DNA of 64,000 bases from Alphaproteobacteria bacterium. GTDB taxonomy: Bacteria; Pseudomonadota; Alphaproteobacteria; UBA7887. Below are positions 39,775 to 56,989 of the stretch, one piece after another (position 1 is the first letter of the stretch; each line of letters opens with the position of its first letter). The position numbers were made by a program, and so were the translations under genes. The notes beneath the pieces are model-generated. The model was given only the letters and a program-made list of their open reading frames with translations, searched no databases and had not been told where the DNA came from. The stretch is taken from positions 704,001 through 768,000 of the forward strand of contig CBDCGL010000011.1 in the NCBI GenBank assembly GCA_965216755.1, written 5' to 3'.

Positions 39775-41672
39775 CCCTTATTTTCTTCCCGTTTTTCAAT
39801 CGCCAATGCGGTCATCGATTCGACAAATGACGTTACGGCATCATTGTCGTCGAACAATCCAGGTACGGTCGCGCGGATCTGATCCCGGACCTGCCGTCCA
39901 AGATCACGGTCGCTGGCCAGCTGGACCGCCCGTTGTGCGTAATTCTCCGCCGACGTCGCGATCGCGTCCATGACCCCCATACGCGCATAAAAACCATAGG
40001 TCAAACGGCCGCGCAAATAGCGGCCGGGCAGGGTGACGGTCGGTGTTCCGGCGGCCAGACATTCCAGACTGGTCTTGCCGCCACAGAAATGTGGTGTGTC
40101 CAATACGACATCGGCCGCGGCCTGCGCGCGAACAAAGTCATCGCGACTAAGGTTGGGGGCAAACACGATGCGGTCGGCAACATCACCATGAGACTTGTTT
40201 ATGCGCGCCGTCAGCAATGTTTGCCAGTGGGCGCGGTGGCCCTTCAATAAACAAATGCGGGCGGCCGGATCGCGCCGCAGAATGTCGGCCAAGATCGCGT
40301 CAAAAGAGGGGTGCAATTTGAACAGGCTTTGCGGGCAGAGATAAAGTCGACCATTGGTCGGTAAGCCGAGGTCCGCGCGGGATTTCGCATCACGTGCGAC
40401 CTCTGGGTACGGAAATTTGAGAAACAGCCAGGGTAGGCGGATCAGGTGTTCGGAATAGTCTTTGTCCGCATCCGCGCGCTCGAAAATCGGCGCCGAAATC
40501 ATCACGTCGATGTTCGGAATTCCTGATGTCACCGGGTGGCCCCAGCCCATGACCTGAACGGGCGCCAAGCGGGCATAGGCGAGGAAATAGGTCGCCGGAT
40601 CCATGCCGATTTCGGGAAAAAACAGCACATCAAGATGGGCGTCACTGACAATATCTCGCATGCGCGCCAGGTTACGCGGTAGCACCGTGTAATGTTCGGC
40701 GCTTCGCGCGATCTCGTTGGCGACTGGGTCGTCGGCCGCGCCGATTTGAAACAAGAAAAGCTCGATTGGTTCGTGTCTCAGGGCCTTGATCGCGTCCTTG
40801 AACAAAGCCCCAATGGTATGGTCATAAAAATAGGCCGAGATCATGCCCAATCGAAGTCGTCGACCTTGCAACGGCCGCCGGTTGCGAACCCGGTTTTCGG
40901 TCAGACTCGGACATGCGCTGATAAAGAAACGCGCCACCTGTTCTTGGATGGGCCGATCGTCCAAGCCGTGATAGGCGAGATAGAAATTGGTCCAATCACA
41001 ATCGTGCAGCGGATCTTCGATGACCGGTGCGTCATCGATTAAAGCGCCCAAATTCCCTCGCATTCGCGTCCGCAAGTCATCAATCGTAGCTGCCGCTTCG
41101 ACAATCGGCGGCAGCATCATGGCGCGACGGAAGCGGAGCGCGGGATTCGGATCCAGCTTCAGCGCCGTTGCATAGGCCCGATCGGCGTTGTCCAGCTTGC
41201 CTTGCGCTTGGGCCGCAACTGCCAGGTTAACGTGGGACTCAACCGATGTCGGCATCGCCTTGGTCGCACGCGTAAACATAGCCTCCGCATCCGCCCACTG
41301 ATCTTGCCCGCGCAGCAAGGCCCCAAGGTTGTTCAGTGCACCCACATGATTGGGTCGTATCGATAGGACATTTTGATAGTGCGCGACCGCTTCCGTCAAT
41401 CTGCCCGCCCGGCGCAGCAGATTGGCCAAGTTGAAATGTGCCTCGGGCAGATGTGGGTCGAGCTCCAAGGCAGCACGAAACGAGTCGATGGCGTGCTCTT
41501 CATTTCCGGCCCGAGCTTGAAGGATGCCGAGGGCGACCCGGGCACCAAGATCGTAAGGTTTGATTTTCAGCCGTGCTTCGAGCTGTGCCTGCTCGGAACT
41601 CGGTCTCGCGCCATCCGTCAACTGGTCATGCAATCTGATGGACCCGGTATAGTCGCTTCGCGAAGGCCGCAT
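39771..41672 (-). CDS. TPR-containing O-GlcNAc transferase/SPINDLY-like glycosyltransferase (GT41)
   Basis: N-terminal TPRs (AHFNLANLL, ALNNLGALL); HTIG, RLAPVQ..GWGHPVTSG, CPQSLFKLHP, DVVLDTPHFCGG. Confidence 0.9.
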   Translation of the reverse strand: MRPSRSDYTGSIRLHDQLTDGARPSSEQAQLEARLKIKPYDLGARVALGILQARAGNEEHAIDSFRAALELDPHLPEAHFNLANLLRRAGRLTEAVAHYQNVLSIRPNHVGALNNLGALLRGQDQWADAEAMFTRATKAMPTSVESHVNLAVAAQAQGKLDNADRAYATALKLDPNPALRFRRAMMLPPIVEAAATIDDLRTRMRGNLGALIDDAPVIEDPLHDCDWTNFYLAYHGLDDRPIQEQVARFFISACPSLTENRVRNRRPLQGRRLRLGMISAYFYDHTIGALFKDAIKALRHEPIELFLFQIGAADDPVANEIARSAEHYTVLPRNLARMRDIVSDAHLDVLFFPEIGMDPATYFLAYARLAPVQVMGWGHPVTSGIPNIDVMISAPIFERADADKDYSEHLIRLPWLFLKFPYPEVARDAKSRADLGLPTNGRLYLCPQSLFKLHPSFDAILADILRRDPAARICLLKGHRAHWQTLLTARINKSHGDVADRIVFAPNLSRDDFVRAQAAADVVLDTPHFCGGKTSLECLAAGTPTVTLPGRYLRGRLTYGFYARMGVMDAIATSAENYAQRAVQLASDRDLGRQVRDQIRATVPGLFDDNDAVTSFVESMTALAIEKREENKG

Positions 41673-41740: not shown

Positions 41741-42571
41741 ATGTCTCGTTGTCAACATGTAAGCGCGATAATCCTGCTCCTGGTTACAACACTCTTGGCA
41801 AGTGTTGCGCCATCGCACGGCCAAGAACCAGACGGGCGGTTCGCGGATGCTGAAGTCGCCTATGACCGTGGCGACTTTGACCTGGCATTGTCCATCTGGA
41901 TCGTGGCGGCAGAGAACGGCGATGCCACGGCGCAATACAACGCGGCGACGCTCTATCGCTTGGGCAAGGGCGTACCCAGGAACATACCGCGCGCCATGGA
42001 GTTGTATCGGTCGGCGGCGGATCAAGGCCATACGCGCGCGCAAGTGAACCTGGGTCGGCTATTCTTGCAGCCGACCCGTGGCGGGCGCGACCCGGCGCGG
42101 GCGGCTTATTGGTTTCGACTCGCCGCCGATAAAGAAAACTCCCTCGGCCAATATTTCTTGGGCCGTCTATATCGGTCCGGCGAGGGCGTCCCCCCCGATG
42201 CCGCCCAAGCAGCAACACTCTTTCACAAAGCGGCGGAACAGGGTCTGTCCGACGCCGCGTTCGCCTATGCCGAGATGGTGTCGCGTGGCGAGGGCGTGGA
42301 TAGCGACCGGGCCAAAGCCGCGCGTTGGTATACCGTTGCGGCGGCCAGTGGACACGCGGAATCACAGCTGCGGCTCGGCGACATTTACGAGCGTGGCGAT
42401 GGTGTCACAGTGTCTTTCGAACGGGCCTATTTCTGGTACAGCCTTGCGCGTACGACCGGCATCGGCGCGGCGCTGGACGGTCGCGATCGGGTCGCACCTT
42501 TGGTCAGCGATGAAGTGCGTGCCGATCTGGATCGGCGCGTCCAAATGTGGCGGTCTAACGCGGAGAGATAG
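41741..42571 (+). CDS. Secreted Sel1-repeat protein
   Basis: Signal peptide; repeated AQYN.A.LY..GKGV / AA.W...AA..G units. Confidence 0.9.
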   Translation: MSRCQHVSAIILLLVTTLLASVAPSHGQEPDGRFADAEVAYDRGDFDLALSIWIVAAENGDATAQYNAATLYRLGKGVPRNIPRAMELYRSAADQGHTRAQVNLGRLFLQPTRGGRDPARAAYWFRLAADKENSLGQYFLGRLYRSGEGVPPDAAQAATLFHKAAEQGLSDAAFAYAEMVSRGEGVDSDRAKAARWYTVAAASGHAESQLRLGDIYERGDGVTVSFERAYFWYSLARTTGIGAALDGRDRVAPLVSDEVRADLDRRVQMWRSNAER

Positions 42572-43392: not shown

Positions 43393-44745
43393 TTAGTGAA
43401 TGTCTGAAGAAAAGTATTCGTACTTACCATTTGGCATACGATGAATCCTGTCTTTGTACTCGAAATCGTATGAGTAAACGTCTCCAAAACAATCATTAAA
43501 ATAGTTTTCTAAGCGACTCTCCTGATCTTTGCTCAGCACATGATCGACGACAAGGCGCACGAGAATTTGGTCTAATAGACCCTGATGTAATTGGAATTGT
43601 TGCACAGGCGCGATAGCGCTTATTTCACTGGCATCGATCTCGGGCAGCGCGCGGTCGCCGTTTCGGTGGGCCACCAAGTTGCGCGTACGCCCATATACCG
43701 CATTCAACACAGCCAAGCCTCGTCCACAAGGGCAGGACTCACCGCGCTCCGCGATGTCGCCTGTGTCATATCGGATGATCGGAGACGCGAAATTGTGCAA
43801 GTCTGTTACCACAACGCGGCCCGGTTGACCAATTGCACAATCTTGGTCGGTGCCGTCAAGGATTTCTACGAAGACGGACTCGCTTTGGATATGGAGGTTC
43901 TCGCTCTGTGGACATTGGTGCGCGATCACACCCACTTCAGCGGCACTGTACGTTTCGACAACCGGCGTGTTCCATATGTCGGCACAAACGCGGCGGACGT
44001 TGGGGGTGAGAGGCTCACCAAACGTCCGGACTTCCCTCAGTTTCTGCGGATAGTAGCCGGTTTCCTCGGACAGCTTGGCTAGTTCTAGCAGCGTGTACGG
44101 AAGGGTCTGAAGATAGTCGGGATCTTCTGCGATCAAGACGTCCAGCAATGTCCGTGGCGGGCGCACGATTGATGCTTGCACGGACGGGCCCGTTCGAAAA
44201 CCTCTCGCCCAGCCGTCACTTCGCCGCAGGCCAGAGGCCGAAGAGAACGCGCGGAAAGTCAGGTTTTTCGCGGATAGGTCGCGGCCGTGCCAAACATGGA
44301 ACCTTAGGTCGAGAGCGTCCTGGATCACCGCATTGACATTGGTCTGCAGCACCTCCACAGGAGCGCCGCAAGATCCGGCAGTGTACACAGATTTTGGCGC
44401 CCCATGACCGGGCGGGATCTGGCCGCTTTGCAGGGCGCGCTTGCGTCGGTGCAAATCGTCGCGTGTGAGCAACGGTAGAGACCGAAAATCGTGGGATGTC
44501 AACGATTTAGGGTTGTTCTTGCCATAGTCGGCCAGGCGCCGTCTGTAAAACGGCGTGGTTCGCGCCGCATGTTGCATCAACCGCTGCAATTGCCGCATTT
44601 GCATCTCTAGAAGTCGTTCCGGAGGCCACCATTGCGATTGATCCAATTGGAATTGAATGGCTAATTCGCGCGCTTCATCACCATCGGCTAGGGCGGGCCA
44701 AAGAATTCCAGAAACGCGCGATTTTGGAACGGAATCGAACACCAA
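43393..44745 (-). CDS. Phenylacetate-CoA ligase (PaaK/CapK)-like adenylate-forming protein
   Basis: TPFYR, LPLLTR, TAGSCG.P, TYSAAEVG, TDLHNFASPIIRYDTGD, CPCGRGL, NGKY. Start uncertain; the longer ORF to 44982 overlaps the divergent gene. Confidence 0.85.
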   Translation of the reverse strand: MVFDSVPKSRVSGILWPALADGDEARELAIQFQLDQSQWWPPERLLEMQMRQLQRLMQHAARTTPFYRRRLADYGKNNPKSLTSHDFRSLPLLTRDDLHRRKRALQSGQIPPGHGAPKSVYTAGSCGAPVEVLQTNVNAVIQDALDLRFHVWHGRDLSAKNLTFRAFSSASGLRRSDGWARGFRTGPSVQASIVRPPRTLLDVLIAEDPDYLQTLPYTLLELAKLSEETGYYPQKLREVRTFGEPLTPNVRRVCADIWNTPVVETYSAAEVGVIAHQCPQSENLHIQSESVFVEILDGTDQDCAIGQPGRVVVTDLHNFASPIIRYDTGDIAERGESCPCGRGLAVLNAVYGRTRNLVAHRNGDRALPEIDASEISAIAPVQQFQLHQGLLDQILVRLVVDHVLSKDQESRLENYFNDCFGDVYSYDFEYKDRIHRMPNGKYEYFSSDIH

Positions 44746-44926
44746 TTTGCCGTCGGATATTATCAGGTTAGGCCATGTGCTTGATTCACAGAGAAGGTGT
44801 GATAGACGCGCCTGCCTGTGATCGCAATTACTTTTCGCGTCGGACACCTGTCCTATATCGAACCGTGACGCGGTATCTCGACGAACCCACAATTCAAGAC
44901 CTCTTTCGTTAAAAAGGAATAGAGTT

Positions 44927-45397
44927 TTGAAAATTAAATACTTTATGGTTTTCGCTTTGGTTTGTGCAGGTGTATCGACCATGCCTGCTGAGGCGGCACA
45001 AGAAGTGAACGAAAGCGAGCGTGCTTGCCTGGCCGAGAATGTATATTGGGAAGGTCGCTCCGAGCCGATCGAAGGCCAACAGGCGATCGCTCACGTGACG
45101 CTCAATCGTGTTTCAGACCCCGCGTTCCCCAACAATATCTGCCAAGTCGTGCGCCAAGGTGGCGAGAAACCACGCGGGCGATGCCAGTTCTCGTGGTGGT
45201 GTGATGGCAAGTCAGATCGGGTGACCGACGCAGATGCGTGGGCGTTGGCCGTTCATATTGCCGACTATGCCATTCGTGGCAAAAGCAGTGATCCGACGGA
45301 CGGCGCCCTGTATTTCCACAATGGCAAAGTTCGTCCAGCGTGGAGTCATATCAAGCAGCAAACGGCGGAAATCGGCCAACACACCTATTACAGGTAG
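44927..45397 (+). CDS. Cell wall hydrolase, SleB/Hydrolase_2 family
   Basis: CLAENVYWEGRSE, VTLNRV, CQFSWWCDG, DPTDGALYFH, IGQHTYY. Confidence 0.93.
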   Translation: MKIKYFMVFALVCAGVSTMPAEAAQEVNESERACLAENVYWEGRSEPIEGQQAIAHVTLNRVSDPAFPNNICQVVRQGGEKPRGRCQFSWWCDGKSDRVTDADAWALAVHIADYAIRGKSSDPTDGALYFHNGKVRPAWSHIKQQTAEIGQHTYYR

Positions 45398-45452: not shown

Positions 45453-46223
45453 TCAACTTAGTGGCCGACCGCCATCAACGGGCAATACGCAGCCCGTGCT
45501 GCTCTTCATCTGGGCGACCGCCGCGTACGCGACTCTGGCTACATCTTCGGGGCTGGCGAGTTTACCCAGCGGAGTTAGACGTTCCTGCGCGTTGCGCCAT
45601 TCGGGATCCAGCCCCTGAACGAATTCCGTATCGACCAGACCCGGCGCGATGGCGACCACGCGAATATCCGGCGCCAGCGCGCGCGCAAGTGATATCGTCA
45701 TGGTGTTGACTGCCGCTTTTGACGCGCAATAGGCAACATTGCTTCCCATCCCCGTGGTGCCGGCGATCGACGAAATGTTGATGATCGTGCCGCCGCCTGT
45801 CTCTGCGATCAGTGGTTTCAGTGCGCGAATGGCTGCAAACGTACCACGCCAATTGACGCGGAAAATCTCGTCGATCAGGTTGTCGTCCAGTGATTCGAGG
45901 TCGTCATGGGCGACAAATCGCGTCGTGCCGGCACAGTTGACCAATACGTCGAGCCGGCCTTCGTGCTGACGGAGATCTTCGCGCAGGTCTTGGAGGTTAG
46001 CCGAGTCTTCGACATCAATAGCAATATGTCGGTGTTCGTCGCCTGGTAGAGTCGTGACGAGTTCCGTGGCCGCATTGGCACGCCTGCGATATCCAACCAC
46101 CACGCGCATGCCGCCGGCAGCAAGCGCCCGACAAATGGCGCCGCCGATGCCGCCAGCGCCGCCGACGACCAATGCGACCTTATCCCGCATGTCCGCTGTA
46201 AGTTGAAAATCGCTGTTCGACAT
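45453..46223 (-). CDS. Short-chain dehydrogenase/reductase
   Basis: GGAGGIG, LVNCAG, NISS, YCASK, PG, VDGG. Confidence 0.93.
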   Translation of the reverse strand: MSNSDFQLTADMRDKVALVVGGAGGIGGAICRALAAGGMRVVVGYRRRANAATELVTTLPGDEHRHIAIDVEDSANLQDLREDLRQHEGRLDVLVNCAGTTRFVAHDDLESLDDNLIDEIFRVNWRGTFAAIRALKPLIAETGGGTIINISSIAGTTGMGSNVAYCASKAAVNTMTISLARALAPDIRVVAIAPGLVDTEFVQGLDPEWRNAQERLTPLGKLASPEDVARVAYAAVAQMKSSTGCVLPVDGGRPLS

Positions 46224-46408
46224 GTGGTTACCTTTCTCATGTCACGAAGTCATCAATCGCATTTGGCGTGGCAATTGCGATGGCGACTTTTGGATATTGG
46301 ACGCGTCGCGCTAAGCTTTGTTCGGCCAGTCGGGATTTTTGCAGGATACGGCCCCCATATGATCGTGTCGCGCGTCATTTCGGCTAAGTCAACTATCGGA
46401 GACAACGC

Positions 46409-48074
46409 GGTGTCGCAAGTTATCAAGCAGCCAAGGCAACCATCTTCGCTACAGGCGACGGCGGCACTGCTGGCGGCTGCTGCCGTGCTCAACACCACAT
46501 TGACCTTTCATAATATCTGGCCAACGCCGTGGATTCGTCCGTCGGCGGAGGTTTCCGTAGAGATCGTGTCTTTGGTGCTGGCGCTGGCGCTGGCGATGGC
46601 GATCGGGTTCCGGCCCGGCGCGACCACCCGTTGGCTGCTTACCATCGTCGTTATGTTCTTGGCTGCCGCGCGCTATGCCGAAGTTACAGCACCAGCCTTA
46701 TTTGGCCGGGCGATCAATGTTTATTGGGATCTGCCCCATGTGCCCAACGTTATACGGATGATGACCGAAGCGCTGCCGGCTGCGTTTTTGGTGGTGGGCC
46801 TTGGCTGTCTTGTTATTGGCTTGTTTTTGCTGGCGAGCGCAATCAACGCTGCCTTGCGTTGGCTTTCGATTGCGCTTGCCGTCGTGCCGTTGCGACGAAT
46901 GGCGATAATTGCGTCCGTTTGTTTGATCGCCTTGTTTCACCTTTCGTACGGCGGTTTCGGCATCGCGCCTTTGATCCGTTTCTCGATCCCGGTTACGCGC
47001 ACATATGCACAGCAAGCCGAATTCTTGATCGATGTCGCGCAAAGCGCTGATCAGCTCGAACGAACCTGGCCGACCGCCCCTGTTAATCCCGATATCGCGC
47101 GCCTCAGGCATACCGACCTGGATTTGCTCTTTTTTGAGTCTTATGGCGCGACGGCCTTAGACGAACCACGGCATGCCGGTTCGTTGTCGGCCGCATTTGC
47201 CGCCCTTGAAGTTGGCTTGAAGGGATCGCCTTGGCAGGTTGTCTCAGGTTATTTGCGTGCGCCGACATTTGGGGGCGCTTCGTGGCTGACGCACGCCAGT
47301 GTTTTGTCCGGTCTGCACATCACCGACCAGCAAGACTACCATATGCTTCTGACCACCGACCGCGCCACGCTCGTCCAGCATTTCGACGCGTTGGGGCACC
47401 GCACGGTGGCCGTCTTTCCAGGCTTTCGCAAAGCATGGCCGGAGGGCCAATACTACAGGTTCGACCAGCTCTACGATGCACAGATGCTTGACTATCCGGG
47501 CCCGGCGTTCGGTTGGTGGACCATCCCCGATCAGTTCAGCTTGGCCAAGGCACGCTCGCAAGAATTGCGTATCGCCGACACCGCACCCCGTTTCACGGTT
47601 TTCGCATCGATAACAAGTCACGCGCCATTCGCGCCAACTCCGCCCTACATCGACGACTGGTCGCAGATGACGCGCCCGCACCCCTATCGCGACGCCGCGG
47701 TCCCGGTTGACGTTGAAGAGCGGAACAGATGGACGGATATGAGCCCATCCTATGTGCGCACGATACGCTATAACTTGAATGTGTTAGCCGGCTGGTTAAA
47801 TCTGCGATCGGCCGACGATGCGATTGTGATCGCCATGGGTGACCATCAGCCGCCAGCCGCGGTCAGTGGCGAGAGTGCGCGGTGGGACGTGCCCGTGCAT
47901 GTTTTTGCTCAGTTCGATGGATTTCTAAGACCCTTCGTGGCCGCGGGTTTTACGCCGGGCCTTGTTCCACGAGGGCCGACCCTGGGCGGAGTCGAGCTGA
48001 TCCATGATGTGGTCGTCCATAGCTTTGGCAAATTGGGCACCGCGCAAGTTCGTGCGTACAACAAAAGCGATTAG
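46409..48074 (+). CDS. Membrane-bound sulfatase-like (LtaS/OpgB/alkaline phosphatase superfamily) protein
   Basis: About five N-terminal TM segments, then FFESYG, PTFGGASW, SHAPF, GDHQP metal-site motifs. Start uncertain (ORF open from 46203). Confidence 0.8.
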
Positions 48075-48077
48075 ACC

Positions 48078-50681
48078 TTGACCGCGCGCAATCTGCTCAT
48101 TGTGTCTTGGGTCGCGGCACTGACTGTCACGATTTGGTGGGCGGCTCATTCGCCCCACAGCCCACCATCTTGGGATGGCGGTCTGGTCGGTGGCCTGACC
48201 TATGCGCCATATCAACGGCACGACGACCCCGCACGCCGGGACGTGCCTTCGCGAGAGGATGTTTACCGCGACGTCGACCTCATTGCTGGCCGCGCCGGCG
48301 CAATACGGACCTACGCGATGGACGCCGCAGGCGCACGTGCCGTCGCCGCGGCAGCAGCGTACAATTTGCGCATCACTGCCGGGGCATGGCTGCGTGGGGC
48401 CCGTGACGCCGACCGCGCTGAGATCGAGCACTTGATCGCGGTGGCCAATCGTACGTCGGCGATCGAGCGTCTCTTGATCGGCAACGAAACGGTTTTGCAT
48501 GAGCGACTTGCGCCGCGAGAGCTCGCGGCGCTGATCGGCAATGTGCGCCAAACAGCGTCTGTGCCTGTCGGCACGGCGGAGCCATGGCACATATGGCTGG
48601 CCCATCCCGAGCTTGCCGCGGCAAGCGACTTCGTCGGTGTTCACATCCTGCCCTATTGGGAGGGTATTTCACGCACCGCCGCCATCGACTATGTCTTTCG
48701 GCGCCTCGCGGCGCTGCGGACGGCGTTTCCAGGCAAACCGATCGTTTTGGCAGAGGTTGGCTGGCCGAGTGACGGACCAAGAATGGGTGCGGCCGTTCCA
48801 TCGATCGCCAACCAGGCGTGGTTTAGCCGCGCTTTCGCTACCCGCGCGGAAAAGGAAGGTTTCAGCGACTATTTCTTCATCGAGGCATTTGACCAACCTT
48901 GGAAATCGGCGAGCGAGGGACAAGTCGGGCCGTATTGGGGCCTGTGGAACGCCAATCGGCAGCCCAAATTCCCCTGGGTCGGTTCGGTCACGCCGCGTCC
49001 TTCTTGGTGGTTGCCAACGATGGTGGTGGTTTTGGGGCTGCTTATCGTCGCCGGTGTCTATTTACGCGCCAGGCCGCAGATTTCGTCGACGGGCACAGCG
49101 GCAATGTCGTTTTTTGTTGTGGGCAGTTTTTCGCTTTACGCATTGACCGCGTCGGCGCCGCTTGTTCGGTACTACACAGGGGCTGAGATTGCGGTATGGA
49201 GTGTGCTTCTGGCCGCCCAATTGCTATTGATCGCGACGGCACTTGTAGAGGCCATTGAAGCGCTAGACGTAACGTGTACGGGGCCGCGACGACGCATTTT
49301 TGCGGCGAACCCTGGCGTTGTCGCCCGGCACCCAATGGTGTCGATCCATGTCCCATGCTGCGACGAGCCGCCGGACATGGTCGCGCAAACTTTGCGGGCG
49401 CTCGGGCGACTGGACTACCCCGCCTACGAGGTCTTGGTTATCGTCAACAATACGCCGGATCCGGAAAACAGACGGGCAATCTCCGATCTGTGCCGGCGCT
49501 TTGGTCCGAAGTTCCGCTTCATCTGTTTGCCGGATTGTCCTGGCTACAAGGCTGGCGCATTGAACGTCGCCCTGTCACGAAGTCACGCAGCGGCGGAAAT
49601 CGTGGCCGTCGTCGACAGCGACTATACGGTCGACCCGCATTGGCTGAGTGCGGCGGTTCCGCATTTCACCGCGCCCGACGTGGCCATTGTTCAGGCACCG
49701 CAGGACTATAGAGATCGCTTGCGAAGCGTCTTCAAGCGCCTTTGCTTTTGGGAATATGCAGCGTTTTTCAAAATCGGCATGGTGCAACGGAATGAGGCCA
49801 ACGCCATCATTCAACATGGCACAATGACTCTCATTCGGCGGCGGGCGCTGCAGGACGTCGGCGGCTGGAACGGATGGTGCATTACTGAAGATGCGGAACT
49901 GGGGCTGCGTCTTATGGCCGCCGGATGGCGTTCGGCCTTTATCACCCGGTCCCTGGGGCGCGGCCTGACACCCGATCGATTTGAGTCCTACAAGGCCCAG
50001 CGATTTCGCTGGGTCTACGGGGCCATGCAAGTCTTGAAGCATCACGCAGGGGCTCTGTTTCTGGGGCGCGAAACGCAACTTTCGGTCTCGCAGCGCTACC
50101 ATTTTGTCGCCGGTTGGTTGCCTTGGTTGGCCGATGGCTGCGGATTGCTGTTCACGGTTGGCGCCATCGCGTGGTCGGCCGCGCTGGCATTGTGGCCTGA
50201 CGCGATCATGGCGCCAGCCGCTGTGTTTCTGCTGCCCACCGTTGCGGTGTTCTTATTTCGGCAGGCGCGGGTCTTGTGGCTCTATCGCCGCACGATGGGC
50301 TGTCGTTTCGTGCAAGCAGCCGGAGCATCGATTGCCGGCTTGGGCCTGAGCCACACTGTCGGCAAGGGGGTGTTGTGGGGTCTATTCACACGACAGCGGC
50401 CGTTTCTTCGCACCCCCAAATGCGAAGACAGGCCCGGATTGCTCAATTTGGTGGCCGGCGTGGGCGAAGAAGCCGTCATTTTCCTGGCGCTGGCCGGGTC
50501 GATAGCGGCTGTCGCGCTGCAACAGGGATTGGATAACATAGATGTCCGATTGTGGCTGCTGGTACTGACGATACAGACGATTCCCTATGCTGCGGCGATC
50601 GCACTTGCGGTCCTTAGTGGTCGACCTATCCAGGTCGGCCAACAGATGGCTGCGCCTATTGTTGTCGAACCGGCTGAATAA
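48078..50681 (+). CDS. GH17-GT2 fusion, NdvB-like beta-1,3-glucan synthase
   Basis: GH17 motifs IRTY, IGNE, AEVGWPS, EAFDQPWK; TM block; GT2 motifs KAGALN, VDSD, TEDAELG, QRFRW. Confidence 0.9.
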   Translation: MTARNLLIVSWVAALTVTIWWAAHSPHSPPSWDGGLVGGLTYAPYQRHDDPARRDVPSREDVYRDVDLIAGRAGAIRTYAMDAAGARAVAAAAAYNLRITAGAWLRGARDADRAEIEHLIAVANRTSAIERLLIGNETVLHERLAPRELAALIGNVRQTASVPVGTAEPWHIWLAHPELAAASDFVGVHILPYWEGISRTAAIDYVFRRLAALRTAFPGKPIVLAEVGWPSDGPRMGAAVPSIANQAWFSRAFATRAEKEGFSDYFFIEAFDQPWKSASEGQVGPYWGLWNANRQPKFPWVGSVTPRPSWWLPTMVVVLGLLIVAGVYLRARPQISSTGTAAMSFFVVGSFSLYALTASAPLVRYYTGAEIAVWSVLLAAQLLLIATALVEAIEALDVTCTGPRRRIFAANPGVVARHPMVSIHVPCCDEPPDMVAQTLRALGRLDYPAYEVLVIVNNTPDPENRRAISDLCRRFGPKFRFICLPDCPGYKAGALNVALSRSHAAAEIVAVVDSDYTVDPHWLSAAVPHFTAPDVAIVQAPQDYRDRLRSVFKRLCFWEYAAFFKIGMVQRNEANAIIQHGTMTLIRRRALQDVGGWNGWCITEDAELGLRLMAAGWRSAFITRSLGRGLTPDRFESYKAQRFRWVYGAMQVLKHHAGALFLGRETQLSVSQRYHFVAGWLPWLADGCGLLFTVGAIAWSAALALWPDAIMAPAAVFLLPTVAVFLFRQARVLWLYRRTMGCRFVQAAGASIAGLGLSHTVGKGVLWGLFTRQRPFLRTPKCEDRPGLLNLVAGVGEEAVIFLALAGSIAAVALQQGLDNIDVRLWLLVLTIQTIPYAAAIALAVLSGRPIQVGQQMAAPIVVEPAE

Positions 50682-50685
50682 GCCG

Positions 50686-51492
50686 ATGGCCCACGTCACG
50701 CACGCATATTGGCAAGATCTGAAAACCACGGATTTCGATGCAATGGATCGGGAGACCACGGTCGTGCTGCTGCCGGTGTCCGCGATCGAACAGCACGGGC
50801 CGCATCTACCGCTCGGCACCGATTGGTTCATTAACGAGGCGATTTTGCAGCGCGCGATCGACCACATATCCGTGCCAGCGAGAGTATTGATTTTGCCAAG
50901 CCAGGCCGTCGGGCATAGCGGCGAACATATTGCCTTCGCGGGCACACTCAGCCATGAGGCTGAAACCCTGATCGCGGCGTGGACGGAAATCGGCGCCGAC
51001 GTGGCGCGTACCGGATTGCGGAAGTTGGTTATTTTCAACAGCCATGGTGGGCAATCACATGTCGTGGACATTGTTGCGGGGCGGCTGCGCCGCGCGCACG
51101 GCATGCTGGTTATTCGCACCAACAGCTTCCGGTTGGGCCCGCCGCCAGGATTGTTTGATGAATGGGAGGCCGCCCACGGCATCCATGGCGGGGCGATTGA
51201 AACATCGATGATGCTCCACTTGCGACCGGAGCTCGTTGAAATGGAAAAGGCGGCCCGCTTTGTCCCATACTCCGAGCACATGGAACGCCAGATGGCGATT
51301 GTACGCGCAGACCGCCCAGTCGGTTTCGGCTGGCAAAGTGAGGATTTGCATGCCGCGGGCGCCGCCGGTGACGCGGCCGCGGCCGACGCTGAAAAAGGCC
51401 GCATAGCCATCCACGACATGGCCAAGAAGCTCGCTTTGGTCATCGACGATGCAGCCCGATTTCCTTTGGCGAAGCTGGGCAATGCGCCGTGA
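50686..51492 (+). CDS. Creatininase family amidohydrolase
   Basis: EQHGPHLPLGTD, SGEH..FAGT, NSHGGQ, HGGAIETS. Confidence 0.93.
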   Translation: MAHVTHAYWQDLKTTDFDAMDRETTVVLLPVSAIEQHGPHLPLGTDWFINEAILQRAIDHISVPARVLILPSQAVGHSGEHIAFAGTLSHEAETLIAAWTEIGADVARTGLRKLVIFNSHGGQSHVVDIVAGRLRRAHGMLVIRTNSFRLGPPPGLFDEWEAAHGIHGGAIETSMMLHLRPELVEMEKAARFVPYSEHMERQMAIVRADRPVGFGWQSEDLHAAGAAGDAAAADAEKGRIAIHDMAKKLALVIDDAARFPLAKLGNAP

Positions 51493-52334
51493 AAATTGGT
51501 ATCGACGACGCCTGGGCAATGTTGCTTGCCGCACGCCATGCGCATCACGGCGTCGAGAACGGAGCGCTGAGGGTTGCTGACGACGGCACGTGGCAATGCG
51601 ACGTTTCGGTGAGTGACGCGGCCGCCGAGCTGCTTGATCTATATGCGCCGGTCGCCGCGGCTGGTCCGGAAAGCCCGCTGATTGTCGGTCATCTGGGGCA
51701 AAGCCTTGATGGCCGCATCGCGACGCATAATGGCGATTCAGACTATGTGACTGGCGCGGACAACCTCGACCACTTGCACCGCATGCGCGCGTTGAGTGAC
51801 GCCGTGATTGTGGGCGCCGGGACCGTAAAGAGCGACAACCCACGGCTCACGACACGGCGAGTCGCCGGACCTTCGCCTCTGCGCGTCATTGTTGGCGACG
51901 TCCCGGTTGATTGTGGCGGCGACCGTGTTGCCCCGGCAATTTCATTTGTCTCGAACGCAGGACGCGCGGCGGACAACGGGATCGGTGAGATCATTGTCGT
52001 GCCACCGAACGGCAACGGCCTTGACCTGTCGGCCGTGGTCTCGATCTTGCGGGACCGAGGTGCCCATGTTCTGTTCGTCGAAGGGGGGGGGATTACGGTT
52101 TCCCGATTTCTGGAACTGGGTCTTATTGATCGTCTGCAGATCACCGTGGCGCCAATCATCATCGGATCCGGGCGCGATGGCATCAGGTTGCCGAAGATTG
52201 ATTGTTTGACGAACTGTATCAGGGCGCCAAGTCGCCGTTACATGATGGGCCAAGATGTCATGTTTGAATTGGACCTTGTGTCGCAAAGAAATCTGTATGG
52301 CCGACAAGGAGATGCGAGTCGCCCGCCACGATGA
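51489..52334 (+). CDS. RibD C-terminal (pyrimidine reductase) domain protein without deaminase domain
   Basis: GQSLDGRIA, HRMRALSDAVIVGAGTV..DNPRLTTR, VEGGG, APIIIGSG. Confidence 0.9.
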   Translation: MKIGIDDAWAMLLAARHAHHGVENGALRVADDGTWQCDVSVSDAAAELLDLYAPVAAAGPESPLIVGHLGQSLDGRIATHNGDSDYVTGADNLDHLHRMRALSDAVIVGAGTVKSDNPRLTTRRVAGPSPLRVIVGDVPVDCGGDRVAPAISFVSNAGRAADNGIGEIIVVPPNGNGLDLSAVVSILRDRGAHVLFVEGGGITVSRFLELGLIDRLQITVAPIIIGSGRDGIRLPKIDCLTNCIRAPSRRYMMGQDVMFELDLVSQRNLYGRQGDASRPPR

Positions 52335-53085
52335 GTCTTCTGCGGCGGTTCGCCCAGGCCCGGATTTGTGCTGCGTTGCCAGGTGCCATTGAAGCGGCCG
52401 CGCCAGACCAGTCAGCCAACAATGCCTTTTGCATGGCGACGTCATCGGTGCCGAGCTGCCAGTCGCTGCAGGCACTGATCAGGTCATATCCATGCGCCTT
52501 CAATAGTTTTTGCGCCGTTTCGGCGGCTTGGGGACCCAACGCCGGGCCAAAGCCTTTGTCTGTCTTCTGGTGGCGATTGATCAGGCCGGCCACCATGTCG
52601 TCGTCGCGGTCGCTCGGCGCCCAGCGGATCAGGCCCTGATAGCTCAGTCGAAACAAGATCGCCGGCGTTGTGCTGACAATTGCGCTGATCGCATCGGTGA
52701 GCCACGATTCCGAAACCAAATCCAGGAACGCCGAGGCCGTGACCAAATCAAAGCGTTGTTCTGTCAACACCGGCAGACCTTGCACCATATCCGAGACTTG
52801 CGTGGTAACGGCGATGCTACCGCGACCGCCCGCCAAGGCCCTCAAGCGCGGATTAACGAGGTCGATCAGGGCCGGATCGTTGTCGATAAGATGCCAGGCT
52901 TGCCGTGAACTTAAGTGCGGCGCGATGGCGCGCAGGTTGGCGCCCGTGCCGGCAGCCAGGTCGAGGATCCGCAACGTTTCCTGTAGGCTCGACCAAGCGC
53001 GTAGCGGCTTGGTGATTTGAGCACCCAACGTGCTCCGATCGTAGGGCTCGCGCAGGTCAAGCCAAGCGCTTTCGAACATGGTCAT
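52258..53085 (-). CDS. Class I SAM-dependent methyltransferase
   Basis: WLDLREPYD, ILDLAAGTGAN, LVTASAFLDLVS, HQKTDKGFGPALGP. Confidence 0.88.
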   Translation of the reverse strand: MTMFESAWLDLREPYDRSTLGAQITKPLRAWSSLQETLRILDLAAGTGANLRAIAPHLSSRQAWHLIDNDPALIDLVNPRLRALAGGRGSIAVTTQVSDMVQGLPVLTEQRFDLVTASAFLDLVSESWLTDAISAIVSTTPAILFRLSYQGLIRWAPSDRDDDMVAGLINRHQKTDKGFGPALGPQAAETAQKLLKAHGYDLISACSDWQLGTDDVAMQKALLADWSGAAASMAPGNAAQIRAWANRRRRLIVAGDSHLLVGHTDFFATQGPIQT

Positions 53086-54143
53086 GGGCGCAAAAAGCGT
53101 TCAATTTCGGCGCCAAAATCGCGGGCGGCCTCGGCCCAATTCGGCAGGCTTGCGCCGGCAACCCGTGCGCGGTCAGCCATCTGCTGGCGAAGCGGCGGCG
53201 AATTGATCAGCCGCCCAAGTGCGTGCGCCAAACCGCCAACATCGCCGGGCGGCACCAATAGGCCCGCCTCGGTTGGCACCGTTTCAGGTATTGCACCGGC
53301 GTTCGTGCTAACGATTGGCAGTCCGCGCGCCAAGGCTTCCGCGAGCACCATGCCGTAGCCCTCGTAATACGATGCGAGCACGAACATATCGGACGCACGG
53401 AAATACTCTTCGAGCGTCGGTCCGACCGCTTCGCCAACCAATGAGACCTTTTCTTGCAATCCCGCGTCGTCGATTGCCGTGCGGACAGCCTTGGTCGTGC
53501 TTGGGTCTAGATCCTGCGGTCCGACACACACCAACCGCCACTGCCTATACGCGGCGCCCGAAAGACACGACAAGGCACGAATCAATACCACGTGCCCCTT
53601 GCGTGGCGTCAACGACGCAACGCACAGCAGGGTGACGATGCCATCCGTCGATCCTGTCACTTGTGTTGCCGGGTCGGTGCCCGGCCGAACCACACTTATC
53701 TTCTCGATTTCAACATCATAGGAGGCCAAGGCGTCGGCGGTCGTCTTGCTGGGCACGATCACATGTGTGGCCGCCGCAAGCGCATGCCGCTCACTCGCGA
53801 AAAACCCTGCTTTTTCGCGTGCGTCGAGACCTGTTTCCGCCGCGAGTGGGTGGTGTACCAACGCGACAAGACACAGGCGCTGGGCCTGAGCGTACGCAAG
53901 TTCGGATAGTACGCCCAACGCCAGGCCGTCGACCACGACCGTGGCGCCGTCGGGAATGTCGCCAAATACTGCCTCGGCATGTGCAACAGCCGCGCGGCTG
54001 GGTTGGGGAAAACCGTTCTTTAGTGCCAGCGCGACAACGTCCCAACTCTCGTGGCGCAGTCCGGCGATGATGCGACGGTCATAAATGAAGCCGCCGGTCT
54101 TGGTCTCCGGATCGCCCGGCACGATGAAATAAAGCCGCGCCAT
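53082..54143 (-). CDS. GT4 family glycosyltransferase
   Basis: TGGFIYDRR, VVDGL, LVHHPL, RKGH, EGYGMVLAEALARGLP. Confidence 0.93.
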   Translation of the reverse strand: MARLYFIVPGDPETKTGGFIYDRRIIAGLRHESWDVVALALKNGFPQPSRAAVAHAEAVFGDIPDGATVVVDGLALGVLSELAYAQAQRLCLVALVHHPLAAETGLDAREKAGFFASERHALAAATHVIVPSKTTADALASYDVEIEKISVVRPGTDPATQVTGSTDGIVTLLCVASLTPRKGHVVLIRALSCLSGAAYRQWRLVCVGPQDLDPSTTKAVRTAIDDAGLQEKVSLVGEAVGPTLEEYFRASDMFVLASYYEGYGMVLAEALARGLPIVSTNAGAIPETVPTEAGLLVPPGDVGGLAHALGRLINSPPLRQQMADRARVAGASLPNWAEAARDFGAEIERFLRP

Positions 54144-54554
54144 TCAACCCTTCGCCGGCAGGGCGCCTTCATAGGCCGCCCACGCAATGTGTGATTCATG
54201 CAAAGTCACCCGCAGGCCGGTCAGGCCGGTCGCGCTGGCGCCCAGTTCGCCGGCCGAGACCCGTGCGCCCAATTGTTCGAAAATCCAGCCCGCCAGCCAT
54301 TCGGTGGTTGTGTTTTGCCCGGTAAACGCAGGTAGAGTGTCCAAGTTCTGATAGTTGACCTCTGCCAGAACGGCGCCGAGCGTTTGACTGGCCAAGCCAA
54401 TGTCGACGACCAGACCGTCATCGTCCAAGGCCGGTCGTCGGAAGGTGGCGTCGACCACAAAGGTGGCGCCGTGTAGCTGTTGTGCCGGACCAAATACGGC
54501 GCCGCGAAAGCTATGCGCGATCATCAAATGGTCGCGGACGGTCAGGCTATACAT
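54144..54554 (-). CDS. 6-pyruvoyl-tetrahydropterin synthase family protein (COG0720, PTPS-IV type)
   Basis: T-fold AHSF...[20 protein letters not shown]; lacks the Cys of the QueD C-x3-HGH motif. Confidence 0.88.
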
Positions 54555-54566
54555 GGTGGCGGCTCC

Positions 54567-55547
54567 TTAGCGATCGGGATAACGAACCCGGTGGCATATC
54601 GTGCCCGCGCCATCAACGGCAAGGTCGGCGATCGTTTTTGGAAGATCATGGAAGTTACTCTCTCCGGTGATCAGCACGTCCAAGACCGGATCCGCAAGAA
54701 GGGACAATGCCAGGCGAAGCCGCTGGCGGCGGTTCCAGCGGCCGCGGCGGTGCGGAGGAATGCGGCCCACTTGTGACGAGATGATCCTAAGGCGCTCTGG
54801 ATGAAACCGTTCGCCCAGCGGTAGTGTCACGTGCCGGTCGCCATACCAACTCATTTCGATGATTGCCGCTTCCGGTGCCGCCAGGCCAAGTGCGTGCACC
54901 AACCCATCCGGGTGACCAGAACTGTGGAAGATTAAGTCCGCCTGATCCTTCGCCGCGTCAGGCCGCGCGAAGTCGACACCGAGTCGCCGAGTGACCGCGC
55001 GTTTGCTCGGGTCGACATCGATCAGTTGCACCGATACGCCCGGAATCTGTGCCGCCAAGTACGCTGTTAGGCAGCCGACGCAACCGGCGCCGATCACGAC
55101 CACGCGATCACCAAGACATGGCGGTGCATCCCAAAGCGCGGTCACCGCCGTTTCCATATTGGCCGCCAGTACGGCCCGTGATGCCGGGACGTCGCTTGGC
55201 AGCGGCACCGCGTCGACGCCGGGGACGACAAATCGGGTCTGGTGGGGGTACAGACAGAATACGGTCTGTCCGATCCTATCGCGCGGGCCCTGTTCGATGA
55301 TCCCGACATTCACATAGCCGTATTTGACGGGCGCCGGAAAAGAGCCGCTTTGGAACGGCGCGCGCATAGGCTCATACAGTGATTCAGGTACACGGCCCGA
55401 CCATACCAGGGTCTCGGTGCCGCGACTGATCGCGCCGAAAAGGGCGCGTACCCGTACATCTCCCGCGCTAGCAGACGACAGAGCCTCCGGGCGAATCTCA
55501 CCCCGGCGTGGCGCGGCGACCCAAAATGCTTCCGCCTTTTCTGTCAT
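54567..55547 (-). CDS. MDR (zinc-binding alcohol dehydrogenase-like) oxidoreductase
   Basis: ISRGTE, PVKYGY, FCLYPHQ, ANMETA, VIGAGCVG, SWYG, SSQVG. Confidence 0.9.
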   Translation of the reverse strand: MTEKAEAFWVAAPRRGEIRPEALSSASAGDVRVRALFGAISRGTETLVWSGRVPESLYEPMRAPFQSGSFPAPVKYGYVNVGIIEQGPRDRIGQTVFCLYPHQTRFVVPGVDAVPLPSDVPASRAVLAANMETAVTALWDAPPCLGDRVVVIGAGCVGCLTAYLAAQIPGVSVQLIDVDPSKRAVTRRLGVDFARPDAAKDQADLIFHSSGHPDGLVHALGLAAPEAAIIEMSWYGDRHVTLPLGERFHPERLRIISSQVGRIPPHRRGRWNRRQRLRLALSLLADPVLDVLITGESNFHDLPKTIADLAVDGAGTICHRVRYPDR

Positions 55548-55598
55548 ATCAAAGCGCCGATTTTGTGCATTTCCAGGATGTGACCGTATGATGGCAAA

Positions 55599-56390
55599 AT
55601 GGTTTCACGCATTCGCGCCATTGCTGTCAATGTTCCATCTGTTCAGCGCGGGCACGCCACCTCGAAGCGCTTGTCGCGCGTTTCTGGGCAGGTTCTGCCG
55701 CTCGCCATGGCGAACTCCGTGACTGTGGCCGGGTTGGGGCTATTTCTGTTTGGGGTGCCCGCTGACGTGATCGCCCGTGGCCTGCTTGCGGCGGGCGCTA
55801 TTGCGATGGTCGTGGTATGGGCTTTTTGTGCCCGCTGCCAATTGGACCGGTTCGAGATTGCCAATCAGATTACGCTTGGGCGCGCCGTTTTGGCAGGCTT
55901 CTGTGTTGGGTTTGTGGGTCAACCTGACACGGCCGCGTACCACGGATGGTTGCTTTTTGGCACGGTCGTGTTGGCCGCTCTCCTCGACGGCGTCGACGGT
56001 TGGGTGGCGCGGCGCACGCGCAGCGAAAGTGCCTTCGGCGCGCGCTTCGATATGGAAATCGATGCCGCGTTTGTGCTGGTCCTCTCTATCCTCGTCTATC
56101 AACTTGACAAGGCTGGCGCGTGGGTCCTGCTATCCGGACTGCTTCGATACTTGTTCATCGCCGCCGGCTTTGTCGTGCCACGATTGCGCGCGACGTTGCC
56201 GCCCAGCATCCGCAGACGGGTGATCTGCGCAATTCAAGTGGCTGCCTTGGTGGTGTGTTTGGCGCCGGCCATGCCAAGCAAGGCCGGCTTATTTGCGGCC
56301 GCGGGCGCTCTCGTTTTGCTGACTTTATCTTTCGGCCGCGATGTGGCTTGGTTACTCCAGGCAGAACCAAATAGGGAGGTAACCAGATGA
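55599..56390 (+). CDS. CDP-alcohol phosphatidyltransferase family protein
   Basis: ANQITLGR and signature DGVDGWVARRTRSESAFGARFDMEID. Confidence 0.93.
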   Translation: MVSRIRAIAVNVPSVQRGHATSKRLSRVSGQVLPLAMANSVTVAGLGLFLFGVPADVIARGLLAAGAIAMVVVWAFCARCQLDRFEIANQITLGRAVLAGFCVGFVGQPDTAAYHGWLLFGTVVLAALLDGVDGWVARRTRSESAFGARFDMEIDAAFVLVLSILVYQLDKAGAWVLLSGLLRYLFIAAGFVVPRLRATLPPSIRRRVICAIQVAALVVCLAPAMPSKAGLFAAAGALVLLTLSFGRDVAWLLQAEPNREVTR

Positions 56391-56989
56391 ACATGTCCGG
56401 TTTGCGTGCGATCCGAACCGCAGTCGCAACTGGCGCCCTTGTGACGATGGCCAATATCGCTGTTGCGGCGCCGGCGAACTACACCATCGACGCTGAACAT
56501 TTCAGTTTTGGCTTCTTAGTGCGTCATATTGGGTTTGCCGACATTCTCGGTATGTTTCTCGAGATGCAGGGCTCGTATACGTTCGATGAAGAGACCATGG
56601 AACTGTCGGATGTGCGTGTCGTCGTCAAGACAGAAAGTGTATTTACAAATCACGAGGCGCGGGACGAACATTTGCGAAGCGCGGATTTCTTCAATAGCGG
56701 CGAATTTCCCGAGATGGTTTTTGTCGGTCAAGGCGCCGAAAAGATCGGCGATCGGTCGGGGAAAGTGGTTGGTGAACTGACTTTGCTTGGTGTCACGCAA
56801 CCGCTGACCTTAGATGTGACATGGAACAAGAGTGGCAATTATCCGTTTGGAGATGGCCACTTTGCCATGGGCATGTCGGCGCGTGGCAAGCTAAGTCGCA
56901 GTGACTTCGGAATGACTTACGCGGTGCAAGGCGATATTGTTGGCGATGAAGTTGAACTGATCTTAGAATTTGAAGGGATCCGCCAATAG
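56387..56989 (+). CDS. YceI family periplasmic lipid/polyisoprenoid-binding protein
   Basis: Signal peptide; YTIDAEH, RDEHLRSADFF, GELTLLGVT, RSDFGM; ATGA overlap with the upstream gene. Confidence 0.93.
   Translation: MNMSGLRAIRTAVATGALVTMANIAVAAPANYTIDAEHFSFGFLVRHIGFADILGMFLEMQGSYTFDEETMELSDVRVVVKTESVFTNHEARDEHLRSADFFNSGEFPEMVFVGQGAEKIGDRSGKVVGELTLLGVTQPLTLDVTWNKSGNYPFGDGHFAMGMSARGKLSRSDFGMTYAVQGDIVGDEVELILEFEGIRQ

Follow-up and report, generated by a model that had tools for sequence, protein, structure and literature searches.

A PTPS-IV gene cluster, its sulfatase-like partner and an adjacent putative glucan synthase in an alphaproteobacterium

The subject of this account is a group of ten genes in a 64,000-nucleotide stretch of DNA (hereafter the window, meaning the whole stretch analysed) from an alphaproteobacterium of the UBA7887 lineage. 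At its centre lies a gene for a T-fold protein of the PTPS-IV subfamily, accompanied on the same strand by genes for an MDR-type dehydrogenase, a GT4 glycosyltransferase and a methyltransferase (MT), and faced by a gene of the CDP-alcohol phosphatidyltransferase family (CDPOH). Together with a stand-alone RibD_C reductase and a creatininase-family protein, these make up the core known as the orphan "SCO6650-type" cluster. Three more genes complete the group, and they encode a YceI-family protein, a sulfatase-like (sulf-like) protein and a GH17-GT2 fusion. The sulf-like gene is not a bystander envelope gene, for no other gene is linked as well to the PTPS-IV system. What is new here is the phyletic link between these two, the existence of fusions between CDPOH and the sulf-like protein, and the adjacency of the putative glucan synthase.

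The PTPS-IV core and its conservation

As for the identity of the T-fold protein, the evidence is of several kinds. At residue 21 it carries a ten-residue stretch with the FGPAQ signature, which is invariant in an alignment of 12 PTPS-IV homologues, and over residues 1-132 it matches SCO6650 of Streptomyces coelicolor (3d7j_A of PDB entry 3D7J, E 1.8e-54). An earlier note on this DNA had held that the protein is distinct from QueD, and this is borne out: alanine stands in place of the catalytic cysteine and of the third zinc histidine, and with TIGR03367 (QueD) the protein reaches 35 bits, where the cut-off is 89. No other PTPS-family gene is found in the whole genome. The family itself is large; all 8000 scored candidates pass E 0.001, and the top 119 matches listed, at 68-75% identity, have named actinomycete and proteobacterial proteins among them.

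The same note spoke of an undescribed pathway, and this stands only in part. No product of the PTPS-IV cluster is reported in the literature searched, which had subscription journals and supplements outside its reach. On the other side, a member of the family has been solved (3D7J), and PMC5445326 names FGPAQ as the PTPS-IV signature and places GTP cyclohydrolase II (GCH II, PF00925) and RibD_C (PF01872) in PTPS-IV gene neighbourhoods. In the window, the RibD_C gene is 1.8 kb from the PTPS gene, and there is no GCH II. In the studies of Spoonamore and Bandarian from 2006 and 2008, SCO6650 is said to be without zinc and without PTPS activity, and SCO6655, a GCH II paralogue from the same neighbourhood, reportedly gives a formylated product by way of a Met switch residue.

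How far does this gene set travel as a unit? Of the PTPS-IV loci confirmed in species genomes, 558 in all, the best 80 were surveyed, 10 of them shorter than 17 kb; 49 are from Streptomyces, and the other 31 include Halomonadaceae, Burkholderiales, Chromatiales, Gemmatimonadota and other actinomycetes. Genes were counted by tblastn with the window proteins and then with extra queries, and the results are collected in Table 1. GCH II and creatininase co-travel, with both present in 59 loci, GCH II only in 4, creatininase only in 1, and neither in 16. The region around SCO6650 is one of the closest known counterparts of this cluster: an MDR-PTPS-GT4-MT unit facing a CDP-alcohol transferase occurs in the same order in the 49 Streptomyces loci, and the FGPAQ-LHGA signature is common to both. 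It differs in that no GCH II is linked to the cluster in the window, and none of the Met type is found anywhere in the genome; the window also has no cluster-type flippase-like gene, but adds YceI, an AP-superfamily candidate transferase and a putative glucan synthase. Where YceI and the sulf-like gene stand here, actinomycetes and Halomonadaceae have the MprF-like flippase gene instead.

Table 1. Genes of the locus with their window coordinates, and the number of the 80 PTPS-centred loci in which each gene was found
Gene product	Coordinates	Strand	Family evidence	Loci (window proteins)	Loci (extra queries)
Sulfatase-like (sulf-like) protein	46203-48074	+	Pfam Sulfatase 22.7 bits, cut-off 25	8/80	11/80
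GH17-GT2 fusion	48078-50681	+	Pfam GT2 112 bits; GH17 24 bits, cut-off 28.2	0/80	
Creatininase-family amidohydrolase	50686-51492 (longest ORF from 50587)	+	Pfam PF02633 228 bits	60/80	60/80
Stand-alone RibD_C reductase	51489-52334	+	Pfam PF01872 111 bits	24/80	51/80
SAM-dependent methyltransferase (MT)	52258-53085	-	Pfam Methyltransf_25/12/31	76/80	78/80
GT4 glycosyltransferase	53082-54143	-	Pfam	80/80	
PTPS-IV T-fold protein	54144-54554	-	Pfam PTPS (PF01242) 79.1 bits, cut-off 22.4		
MDR-type dehydrogenase, polyol-phosphate-dehydrogenase-like	54567-55547	-	Weak Pfam and NCBIfam matches only	79/80	
CDP-alcohol phosphatidyltransferase-family membrane enzyme (CDPOH)	55599-56390	+	Pfam CDP-OH_P_transf (PF01066) 63.8 bits	73/80	74/80
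YceI-family periplasmic lipid-binding protein	56387-56989	+	Pfam PF04264 137 bits	9/80	9/80
GCH II				63/80	63/80
LPG_synthase_TM (MprF flippase-like)			Pfam-confirmed on one example		68/80

Closer to the window, the co-conservation of the three gene units had been named beforehand as a check, and six relatives of the same family do carry all ten genes together. Their order is creatininase and RibD_C on one strand, then MT, GT4, PTPS and MDR on the other, and then CDPOH, YceI, sulf-like and GH17-GT2 on the first strand again. The window has the same ten genes, with the pair of sulf-like and GH17-GT2 relocated before creatininase. The contig of a seventh relative ends at the sulf-like gene, and in all seven YceI lies between CDPOH and the sulf-like gene. 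Since the arrangement recurs in many distant genomes, it is far beyond chance. In the relative G001 (locus L099, C10:38551-38949), the PTPS-IV match is only 53% identical and reads through one TGA; the gene may be broken there, or the sequence may contain an error.

The earlier description agrees with an ORF check and with Pfam: ten open reading frames lie between 46.2 and 57.0 kb, with the strands and families of Table 1. Its three tightly packed units were found as well, with gaps of 0-12 bp or overlaps of 4 bp, given a creatininase start at ATG 50686. With this start, GH17-GT2 and creatininase are 4 bp apart; the gap between the sulf-like and GH17-GT2 genes is 3 bp, and that between MDR and PTPS 12 bp, while PTPS and GT4 abut. 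Overlaps of 4 bp join creatininase to RibD_C, GT4 to MT, and CDPOH to YceI. The RibD_C (+) and MT (-) genes are convergent and share 77 bp at their 3' ends (52258-52334). One start required correction: position 46409, given before for the sulf-like gene, is out of frame and one base off GTG 46410. The in-frame starts are TTG 46203, ATG 46359 and GTG 46410, the homologues begin to align about 20-30 residues past the last of these, and the true start is likely ATG 46359 or GTG 46410. None of the ten proteins reaches an NCBIfam equivalog cut-off. The flanks are unrelated, with a divergent SDR gene upstream and a branched-chain amino-acid ABC transporter downstream. The window also holds a 529-residue ORF with no Pfam match at E 0.001 (43393-44982, -) and a TPR-repeat protein with a C-terminal GT41 (O-GlcNAc-transferase-like) domain (39771-41672, -), next to which is a Sel1-repeat protein (41741-42571).

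The sulfatase-like gene as partner of the PTPS-IV system

The distribution of the sulf-like gene follows that of PTPS-IV closely. Nine of 41 relatives hold PTPS-IV, and the sulf-like family is found in exactly these nine. In a class-wide sample of 401 genomes, both genes occur in 21, PTPS-IV only in 19, the sulf-like gene only in 2 (one of these genomes being 74% complete) and neither in 359, for totals of 40 with PTPS-IV and 23 with the sulf-like gene. The Fisher p of 6e-22 is overstated, because related genomes are not independent of one another. Does this association simply reflect physical linkage? A long distance between the two genes is common (G379, G132 and G249 are examples), and in several genomes it amounts to megabases, so that linkage alone does not explain the association.

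A second line of evidence comes from gene fusions. Six of the best 120 of 495 sulf-like homologues combine a CDP-OH_P_transf domain with a Sulfatase domain, as confirmed with Pfam. These proteins, all from metagenomes, are P0181, P0210, P0216, P0223, P0228 and P0235, of 679-748 residues, and in the two that were compared the N-terminal domain is 44% identical to the CDPOH of the window (E 2e-38 and 3e-44). The fusions tie a would-be lipid-making enzyme to a would-be lipid-using one. Two further candidates, in G081 and G251, were rejected, for the long open frames there are not fusions.

The neighbourhoods of the sulf-like gene tell the same story from the other side. In 80 metagenome loci centred on sulf-like homologues, many of them short, CDPOH was found in 47, MDR in 40 and PTPS in 31; where at least 5 kb was available on both sides, the PTPS-IV core was present in 12 of 17 loci. 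GCH II lies near the sulf-like gene in 18 of the 80, and in all 18 it has Tyr at the switch position. In 12 of these loci (L137, L142, L144, L145, L154, L159, L161, L177, L180, L184, L186 and L194) the Tyr-type GCH II gene adjoins the sulf-like gene, unlike in the window; the two are divergent in 11 and on the same strand in L142.

Another question is what kind of enzyme this gene encodes. Sequence searches of the PDB (E <= 1) and of NCBIfam gave no match for the sulf-like protein, and its score with PF00884 is that of Table 1, under the cut-off. Its AlphaFold2 model, built with 13 homologues (pLDDT 81.7), has membrane helices within residues 13-211 followed by a domain of the AP superfamily. 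In a Foldseek search the best matches were LtaP (2e-9) and LtaS; MCR-1 and EptA matched at full length over 602-624 columns, and GacH, EptC and PbgA were also found. All of these are either membrane enzymes that remove the phospho-head group of a lipid or relatives of such enzymes. Residues E243, S291, D478 and H479 are invariant in the 13 homologues and T286 nearly so; they are likened to the metal and nucleophile residues of LtaS and EptA by motif position, not by residue-level superposition. On the basis of this model, we propose that the protein is a membrane head-group transferase of the LtaS/EptA/MCR-1 kind.

Within this group, OpgB (MdoB) transfers phosphoglycerol from phosphatidylglycerol (PG) onto periplasmic glucans, and BcsG transfers phosphoethanolamine from phosphatidylethanolamine (PE) onto cellulose; EptA and MCR-1 modify lipid A. 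The sulf-like protein is similar to OpgB, BcsG, EptA, MCR-1 and LtaS in having several membrane helices and, on the periplasmic side, an AP-superfamily domain in which Glu, Ser/Thr and Asp-His are conserved. Its gene is directly upstream of one for a putative processive GT2 glucan synthase. It differs from them in having no sequence-level match to a solved member, and in a phyletic pattern that follows PTPS-IV and a dedicated CDPOH instead of PG or PE metabolism. For this last reason the donor lipid would be a new one. The sulf-like enzyme probably acts on the lipid that the cluster would make.

Two minor observations belong here. The sulf-like matches of G015, G018 and G022 contain stops, and they reach further towards the N-terminus than the stop-free matches, so that these stops may sit upstream of the real start. 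A complex prediction for the sulf-like protein with CDPOH gave a score of 0.00 and was run without controls, which makes it uninformative either way.

GTP supply and the class of product

If the pathway begins with GTP, where is the cyclohydrolase? The earlier note expected it to be supplied in trans, there being none in the window, and this proved correct: the matches of the genome lie elsewhere on contig C11, three of them GCH II-like and one to GTP cyclohydrolase I. The search for a second ribA, which had also been suggested, found a URC-type paralogue and a separate RibA whose switch residue is Tyr. The zinc-binding cysteines are missing from the GCH II-like half of the RibBA encoded beside ribD (C11:155266-157676), and kept in the separate RibA (C11:3289341-3289919), which has a long N-terminal extension; this leaves RibA as the only in-trans candidate, and to judge from these residues it seems to be the sole active GCH II of the genome. 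GTP cyclohydrolase III (GCH III, PF05165) and FolE2 (PF02649) gave no match in the genome.

Related to this is the role of the creatininase, which had been read as an ArfB-type deformylase. The fold part of this reading holds, with a match to the PDB creatininase 1q3k at E 5e-16. The protein is the sole member of its family in the genome, and its gene is translationally coupled to RibD_C both in the window and in the relatives. The substrate part does not fare as well, because the genome has no known source of a formylated substrate, neither GCH III nor FolE2 nor a Met-type GCH II having been found in it. GCH II of the Met type, as reported by Spoonamore and co-workers in 2006, gives a formylated product, and that of the Tyr type gives one already deformylated. 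Of the 63 PTPS-centred loci with GCH II, 46 have Met at the switch position, 4 have His and 13 have Tyr, the last in proteobacterial, Gemmatimonadota and Micromonosporaceae loci; Tyr is also found in the 18 of 18 metagenome cases near sulf-like genes mentioned above and in 2 of 2 further copies. Given the missing formylated source and the Tyr-type enzyme of clusters outside the actinomycetes, the creatininase here probably has another substrate. The archaeal ArfA-ArfB-ArfC route offers a partial parallel: here too a creatininase-family gene is coupled to a RibD_C gene, whose best solved relatives include the archaeal 2azn, but no GCH III, FolE2 or Met-type GCH II was detected in this genome.

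Could these genes be mere paralogues with housekeeping tasks in the synthesis of riboflavin, folate or queuosine, placed next to envelope genes by coincidence? The family names RibD_C, PTPS/QueD and creatininase/ArfB invite the idea, and only the names do. Riboflavin synthesis, which the earlier note had named as a role of the RibD and creatininase proteins that would refute its reading, has its own ribD-ribBA locus (C11:155-158 kb), apart from the window, besides the separate RibA. QueC (PF06508) has no match in this genome, which is 99.8% complete, and the single PTPS-family gene is PTPS-IV, without the Cys and third His of QueD/PTPS; a queuosine role is thereby out, and the organism is probably unable to make queuosine precursors de novo, as neither a QueD-type PTPS nor QueC was found. 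The NCBIfam scores lie far under the equivalog cut-offs, the genes stay together from one phylum to the next, and a presence in nine of 41 relatives does not fit a housekeeping role. Riboflavin and queuosine roles were rejected on these grounds, and we regard the housekeeping explanation as a whole as scarcely credible.

The cytoplasmic enzymes give hints about the class of substrate. The RibD_C protein has no deaminase domain, PF01872 being the only one found, and its best PDB matches, 6p8c (3e-20) and 2azn (5e-19), are 2,5-diamino-6-ribosylamino-pyrimidinone 5'-phosphate reductases. With TIGR01508 it scores 87 bits against a cut-off of 186, which makes it a relative, and not an equivalog, of the archaeal/fungal-type reductase. 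The MDR protein is closest in the PDB to galactitol-1-phosphate 5-dehydrogenase 4a2c (E 2.4e-7), and GT4 to the sucrose-phosphate-synthase-like Tll1590 (3e-19) and to MshA (7e-17), with a relation to PimB' as well, its nearest relatives thus being glycosylating enzymes for sugar phosphates or inositol phosphates; for the methyltransferase the PDB search gave no informative solved relative. The PTPS-IV alignment retains the Glu of TLHESH, which we take, from QueD and PTPS structures, to bind the 2-amino-4-oxo-pyrimidine edge. These likenesses agree with, but do not prove, a substrate that is an aminopyrimidine phosphate with a ribityl or ribulosyl group, or a pterin derived from it.

As for the later steps, the CDPOH protein has the complete motif D(x)2DG(x)2AR(x)7-9G(x)3D(x)3D at residue 130, invariant in 13 homologues; its homology begins near residue 50, and an alternative ATG lies at 55707. 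A full-motif CDP-alcohol transferase together with a GT4 enzyme nearest MshA and sucrose-phosphate synthase recalls the logic of phosphatidylinositol phosphate and phosphatidylinositol mannosides and of mycothiol, and this offers an analogy for the building of a polyol head group. The differences are that the cluster in the window has no inositol-phosphate synthase, that the polyol would derive from GTP, and that all NCBIfam equivalog scores are far under their cut-offs. The YceI protein has a signal-like hydrophobic N-terminal segment ending in AVA-AP, as judged by eye.

Here a second alternative has to be weighed, namely that the product is soluble: a pterin or ribityl-pyrimidine glycoside, a cofactor or a pigment, possibly related to F420, with CDPOH making a soluble phosphodiester in the manner of di-myo-inositol-phosphate synthases. 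Among solved CDP-alcohol transferases AF2299 comes nearest, with a weak match (E 0.013), which leans this way. So does PMC5041015, which ties PTPS-IV to F420 synthesis and cites unpublished work for it. The genome also has a homologue of CofE, the F420 ligase (C11:4138789-4139448, E 2.5e-74), and in G219 the CofE and PTPS-IV matches are about 8 kb apart. Across the class, however, CofE is found in 10 of 40 PTPS-IV genomes and in 59 of 361 others (69 of 401 overall, p 0.19), so that this co-occurrence test does not support an F420 link. A flippase-like membrane gene of the MprF type in 68 of the 80 PTPS-centred loci, the tight coupling, fusion included, to a periplasm-facing enzyme resembling head-group transferases, and a periplasmic lipid-binding YceI protein in the operon all speak against a soluble product, which we consider improbable.

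The earlier note had proposed a lipid-linked, envelope-directed product derived from GTP. A core with CDPOH (in 73-74 of the 80 loci) and with the MprF-type gene, conserved together, does point to such a product from the GCH II branch; this support comes from families and neighbourhoods, and the chemistry would follow by inference.

A candidate acceptor and a tentative scheme

Which acceptor, then, might receive the head group? The GH17-GT2 fusion is a putative cyclic beta-1,3-glucan synthase of the NdvB/"Orphan" type. It contains GNETV, AEVGWPS, DSDY, TEDAEL and QRFRW, which we take to be the catalytic motifs. It is like the pseudomonad proteins in architecture, with a GH17-like domain at the N-terminus, a membrane region, and the motifs DxD, TED and QxxRW in its GT2 domain, and differs in a GH17 Pfam score under the cut-off. 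PMC10237404 describes the GH17-GT2 architecture of NdvB/"Orphan" proteins, which it proposes to be makers of cyclic beta-1,3-glucan, and reports that the cyclic beta-1,3-glucan of P. aeruginosa is glycerol-phosphorylated, with a membrane MdoB-like enzyme suggested to add the substituent.

The sulf-like and GH17-GT2 genes are adjacent in the window, in the six relatives (at 37-48% protein identity) and in G094, from another family. Of the metagenome loci, 42 extend far enough downstream to show the next gene; in 6 of these GH17-GT2 immediately follows the sulf-like gene, as it does in two more that are cut within the gene. In the class-wide sample it is found in 13 of 23 genomes with the sulf-like gene versus 66 of 378 without it; among holders of PTPS-IV the figures are 12 of 21 with the sulf-like gene versus 3 of 19 without. 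GH17-GT2 is nevertheless an optional partner, separable from the cluster.

This separability nourishes a third alternative, in which the sulf-like enzyme does handle a lipid-linked, GTP-derived head group, with GH17-GT2 no more than a frequent neighbour: the acceptor would be lipopolysaccharide, another glycan, a protein or water, or the enzyme would be a phosphatase acting on a phosphatidyl-X-phosphate, in parallel to the processing of phosphatidylglycerophosphate or phosphatidylinositol phosphate. The GH17-GT2 of the window is about equally similar (41-48%) to copies from PTPS-positive and PTPS-negative genomes, and so is not a specialised subtype, and a pairing of synthase and phosphatase would explain the fusions too. 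Against this, the adjacency of the two genes survives the rearrangement in the window and recurs in the relatives, in another family and on metagenome contigs; GH17-GT2 is enriched in genomes with the sulf-like gene; and the best structural matches are all transferases or their kin, not phosphatases. We judge this alternative to be somewhat less likely than the scheme that follows.

Our preferred scheme, in which the glucan is the acceptor, is tentative and has two stages: a glycosylated, methylated head group derived from GTP would be placed on a phospholipid, and the phospho-head group would then pass to a cyclic beta-1,3-glucan. Housekeeping RibA would convert GTP into 2,5-diamino-6-ribosylamino-pyrimidinone 5'-phosphate, which the stand-alone RibD_C would divert, undeaminated, to the ribityl form. 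MDR, the zinc-less PTPS-IV, GT4, MT and creatininase would remodel this compound into a glycosylated and methylated polyol resembling a pyrimidine or a pterin. From its family and context, CDPOH would join this polyol to CDP-diacylglycerol, giving a new phospholipid. The LtaS/EptA-like sulf-like enzyme would move the phospho-head group of this lipid onto a periplasmic acceptor, and YceI may assist as a holder of the lipid. The most likely acceptor, for this genome and the family it belongs to, would be the cyclic beta-1,3-glucan of the adjacent GH17-GT2, in parallel to OpgB and BcsG. We infer every chemical step, donor and acceptor from the gene families, co-conservation, phyletic coupling, fusions and transferase fold described above.

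Several points weigh against this scheme, the overstated Fisher value among them. Neither the chemistry nor the lipid nor a substituent on the glucan has been seen. The transfer step must be optional, since 19 of 40 PTPS-IV genomes are without the sulf-like gene, and the AP-superfamily domain could equally be that of a lipid phosphatase or phosphodiesterase. CDP-alcohol transferases can also make soluble phosphodiesters. The glucan is not a general acceptor, because GH17-GT2 is found in none of the 80 PTPS-centred loci, is missing in 9 of the 21 genomes with both PTPS-IV and the sulf-like gene, and, of the 79 genomes in 401 that have it (a tally with the unpublished genome G062 in it), 64 are without PTPS-IV. 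The window has no cluster-type flippase, the best match in the genome being 26% identical and located elsewhere. Finally, the scheme offers no reason for the creatininase in loci whose GCH II is of the Tyr type or lacking.

What would all this mean? The PTPS-IV cluster occurs in hundreds of species, among them most of the Streptomyces sampled; one of its proteins has been crystallised and one neighbouring enzyme characterised, and the product is still missing. The window and its relatives add the downstream half, with a dedicated candidate head-group transferase, a periplasmic lipid-binding protein and a candidate acceptor polymer, so that an orphan cluster becomes a testable scheme. A broader claim, which we put forward as rather doubtful, is that several phyla make a new class of phospholipid, with a glycosylated and methylated head group like a pyrimidine or a pterin that derives from the product of GTP cyclohydrolase II, and that in this family a dedicated LtaS/EptA-like transferase moves the phospho-head group onto a periplasmic cyclic beta-1,3-glucan. 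Glucans of the NdvB type matter for antibiotic tolerance in the biofilms of pseudomonads, according to PMC10237404. If the scheme is true, these genes would stand for a new class of phospholipid head group and for a new decoration of glucans, that is, an envelope glycan with a substituent derived from a nucleobase.

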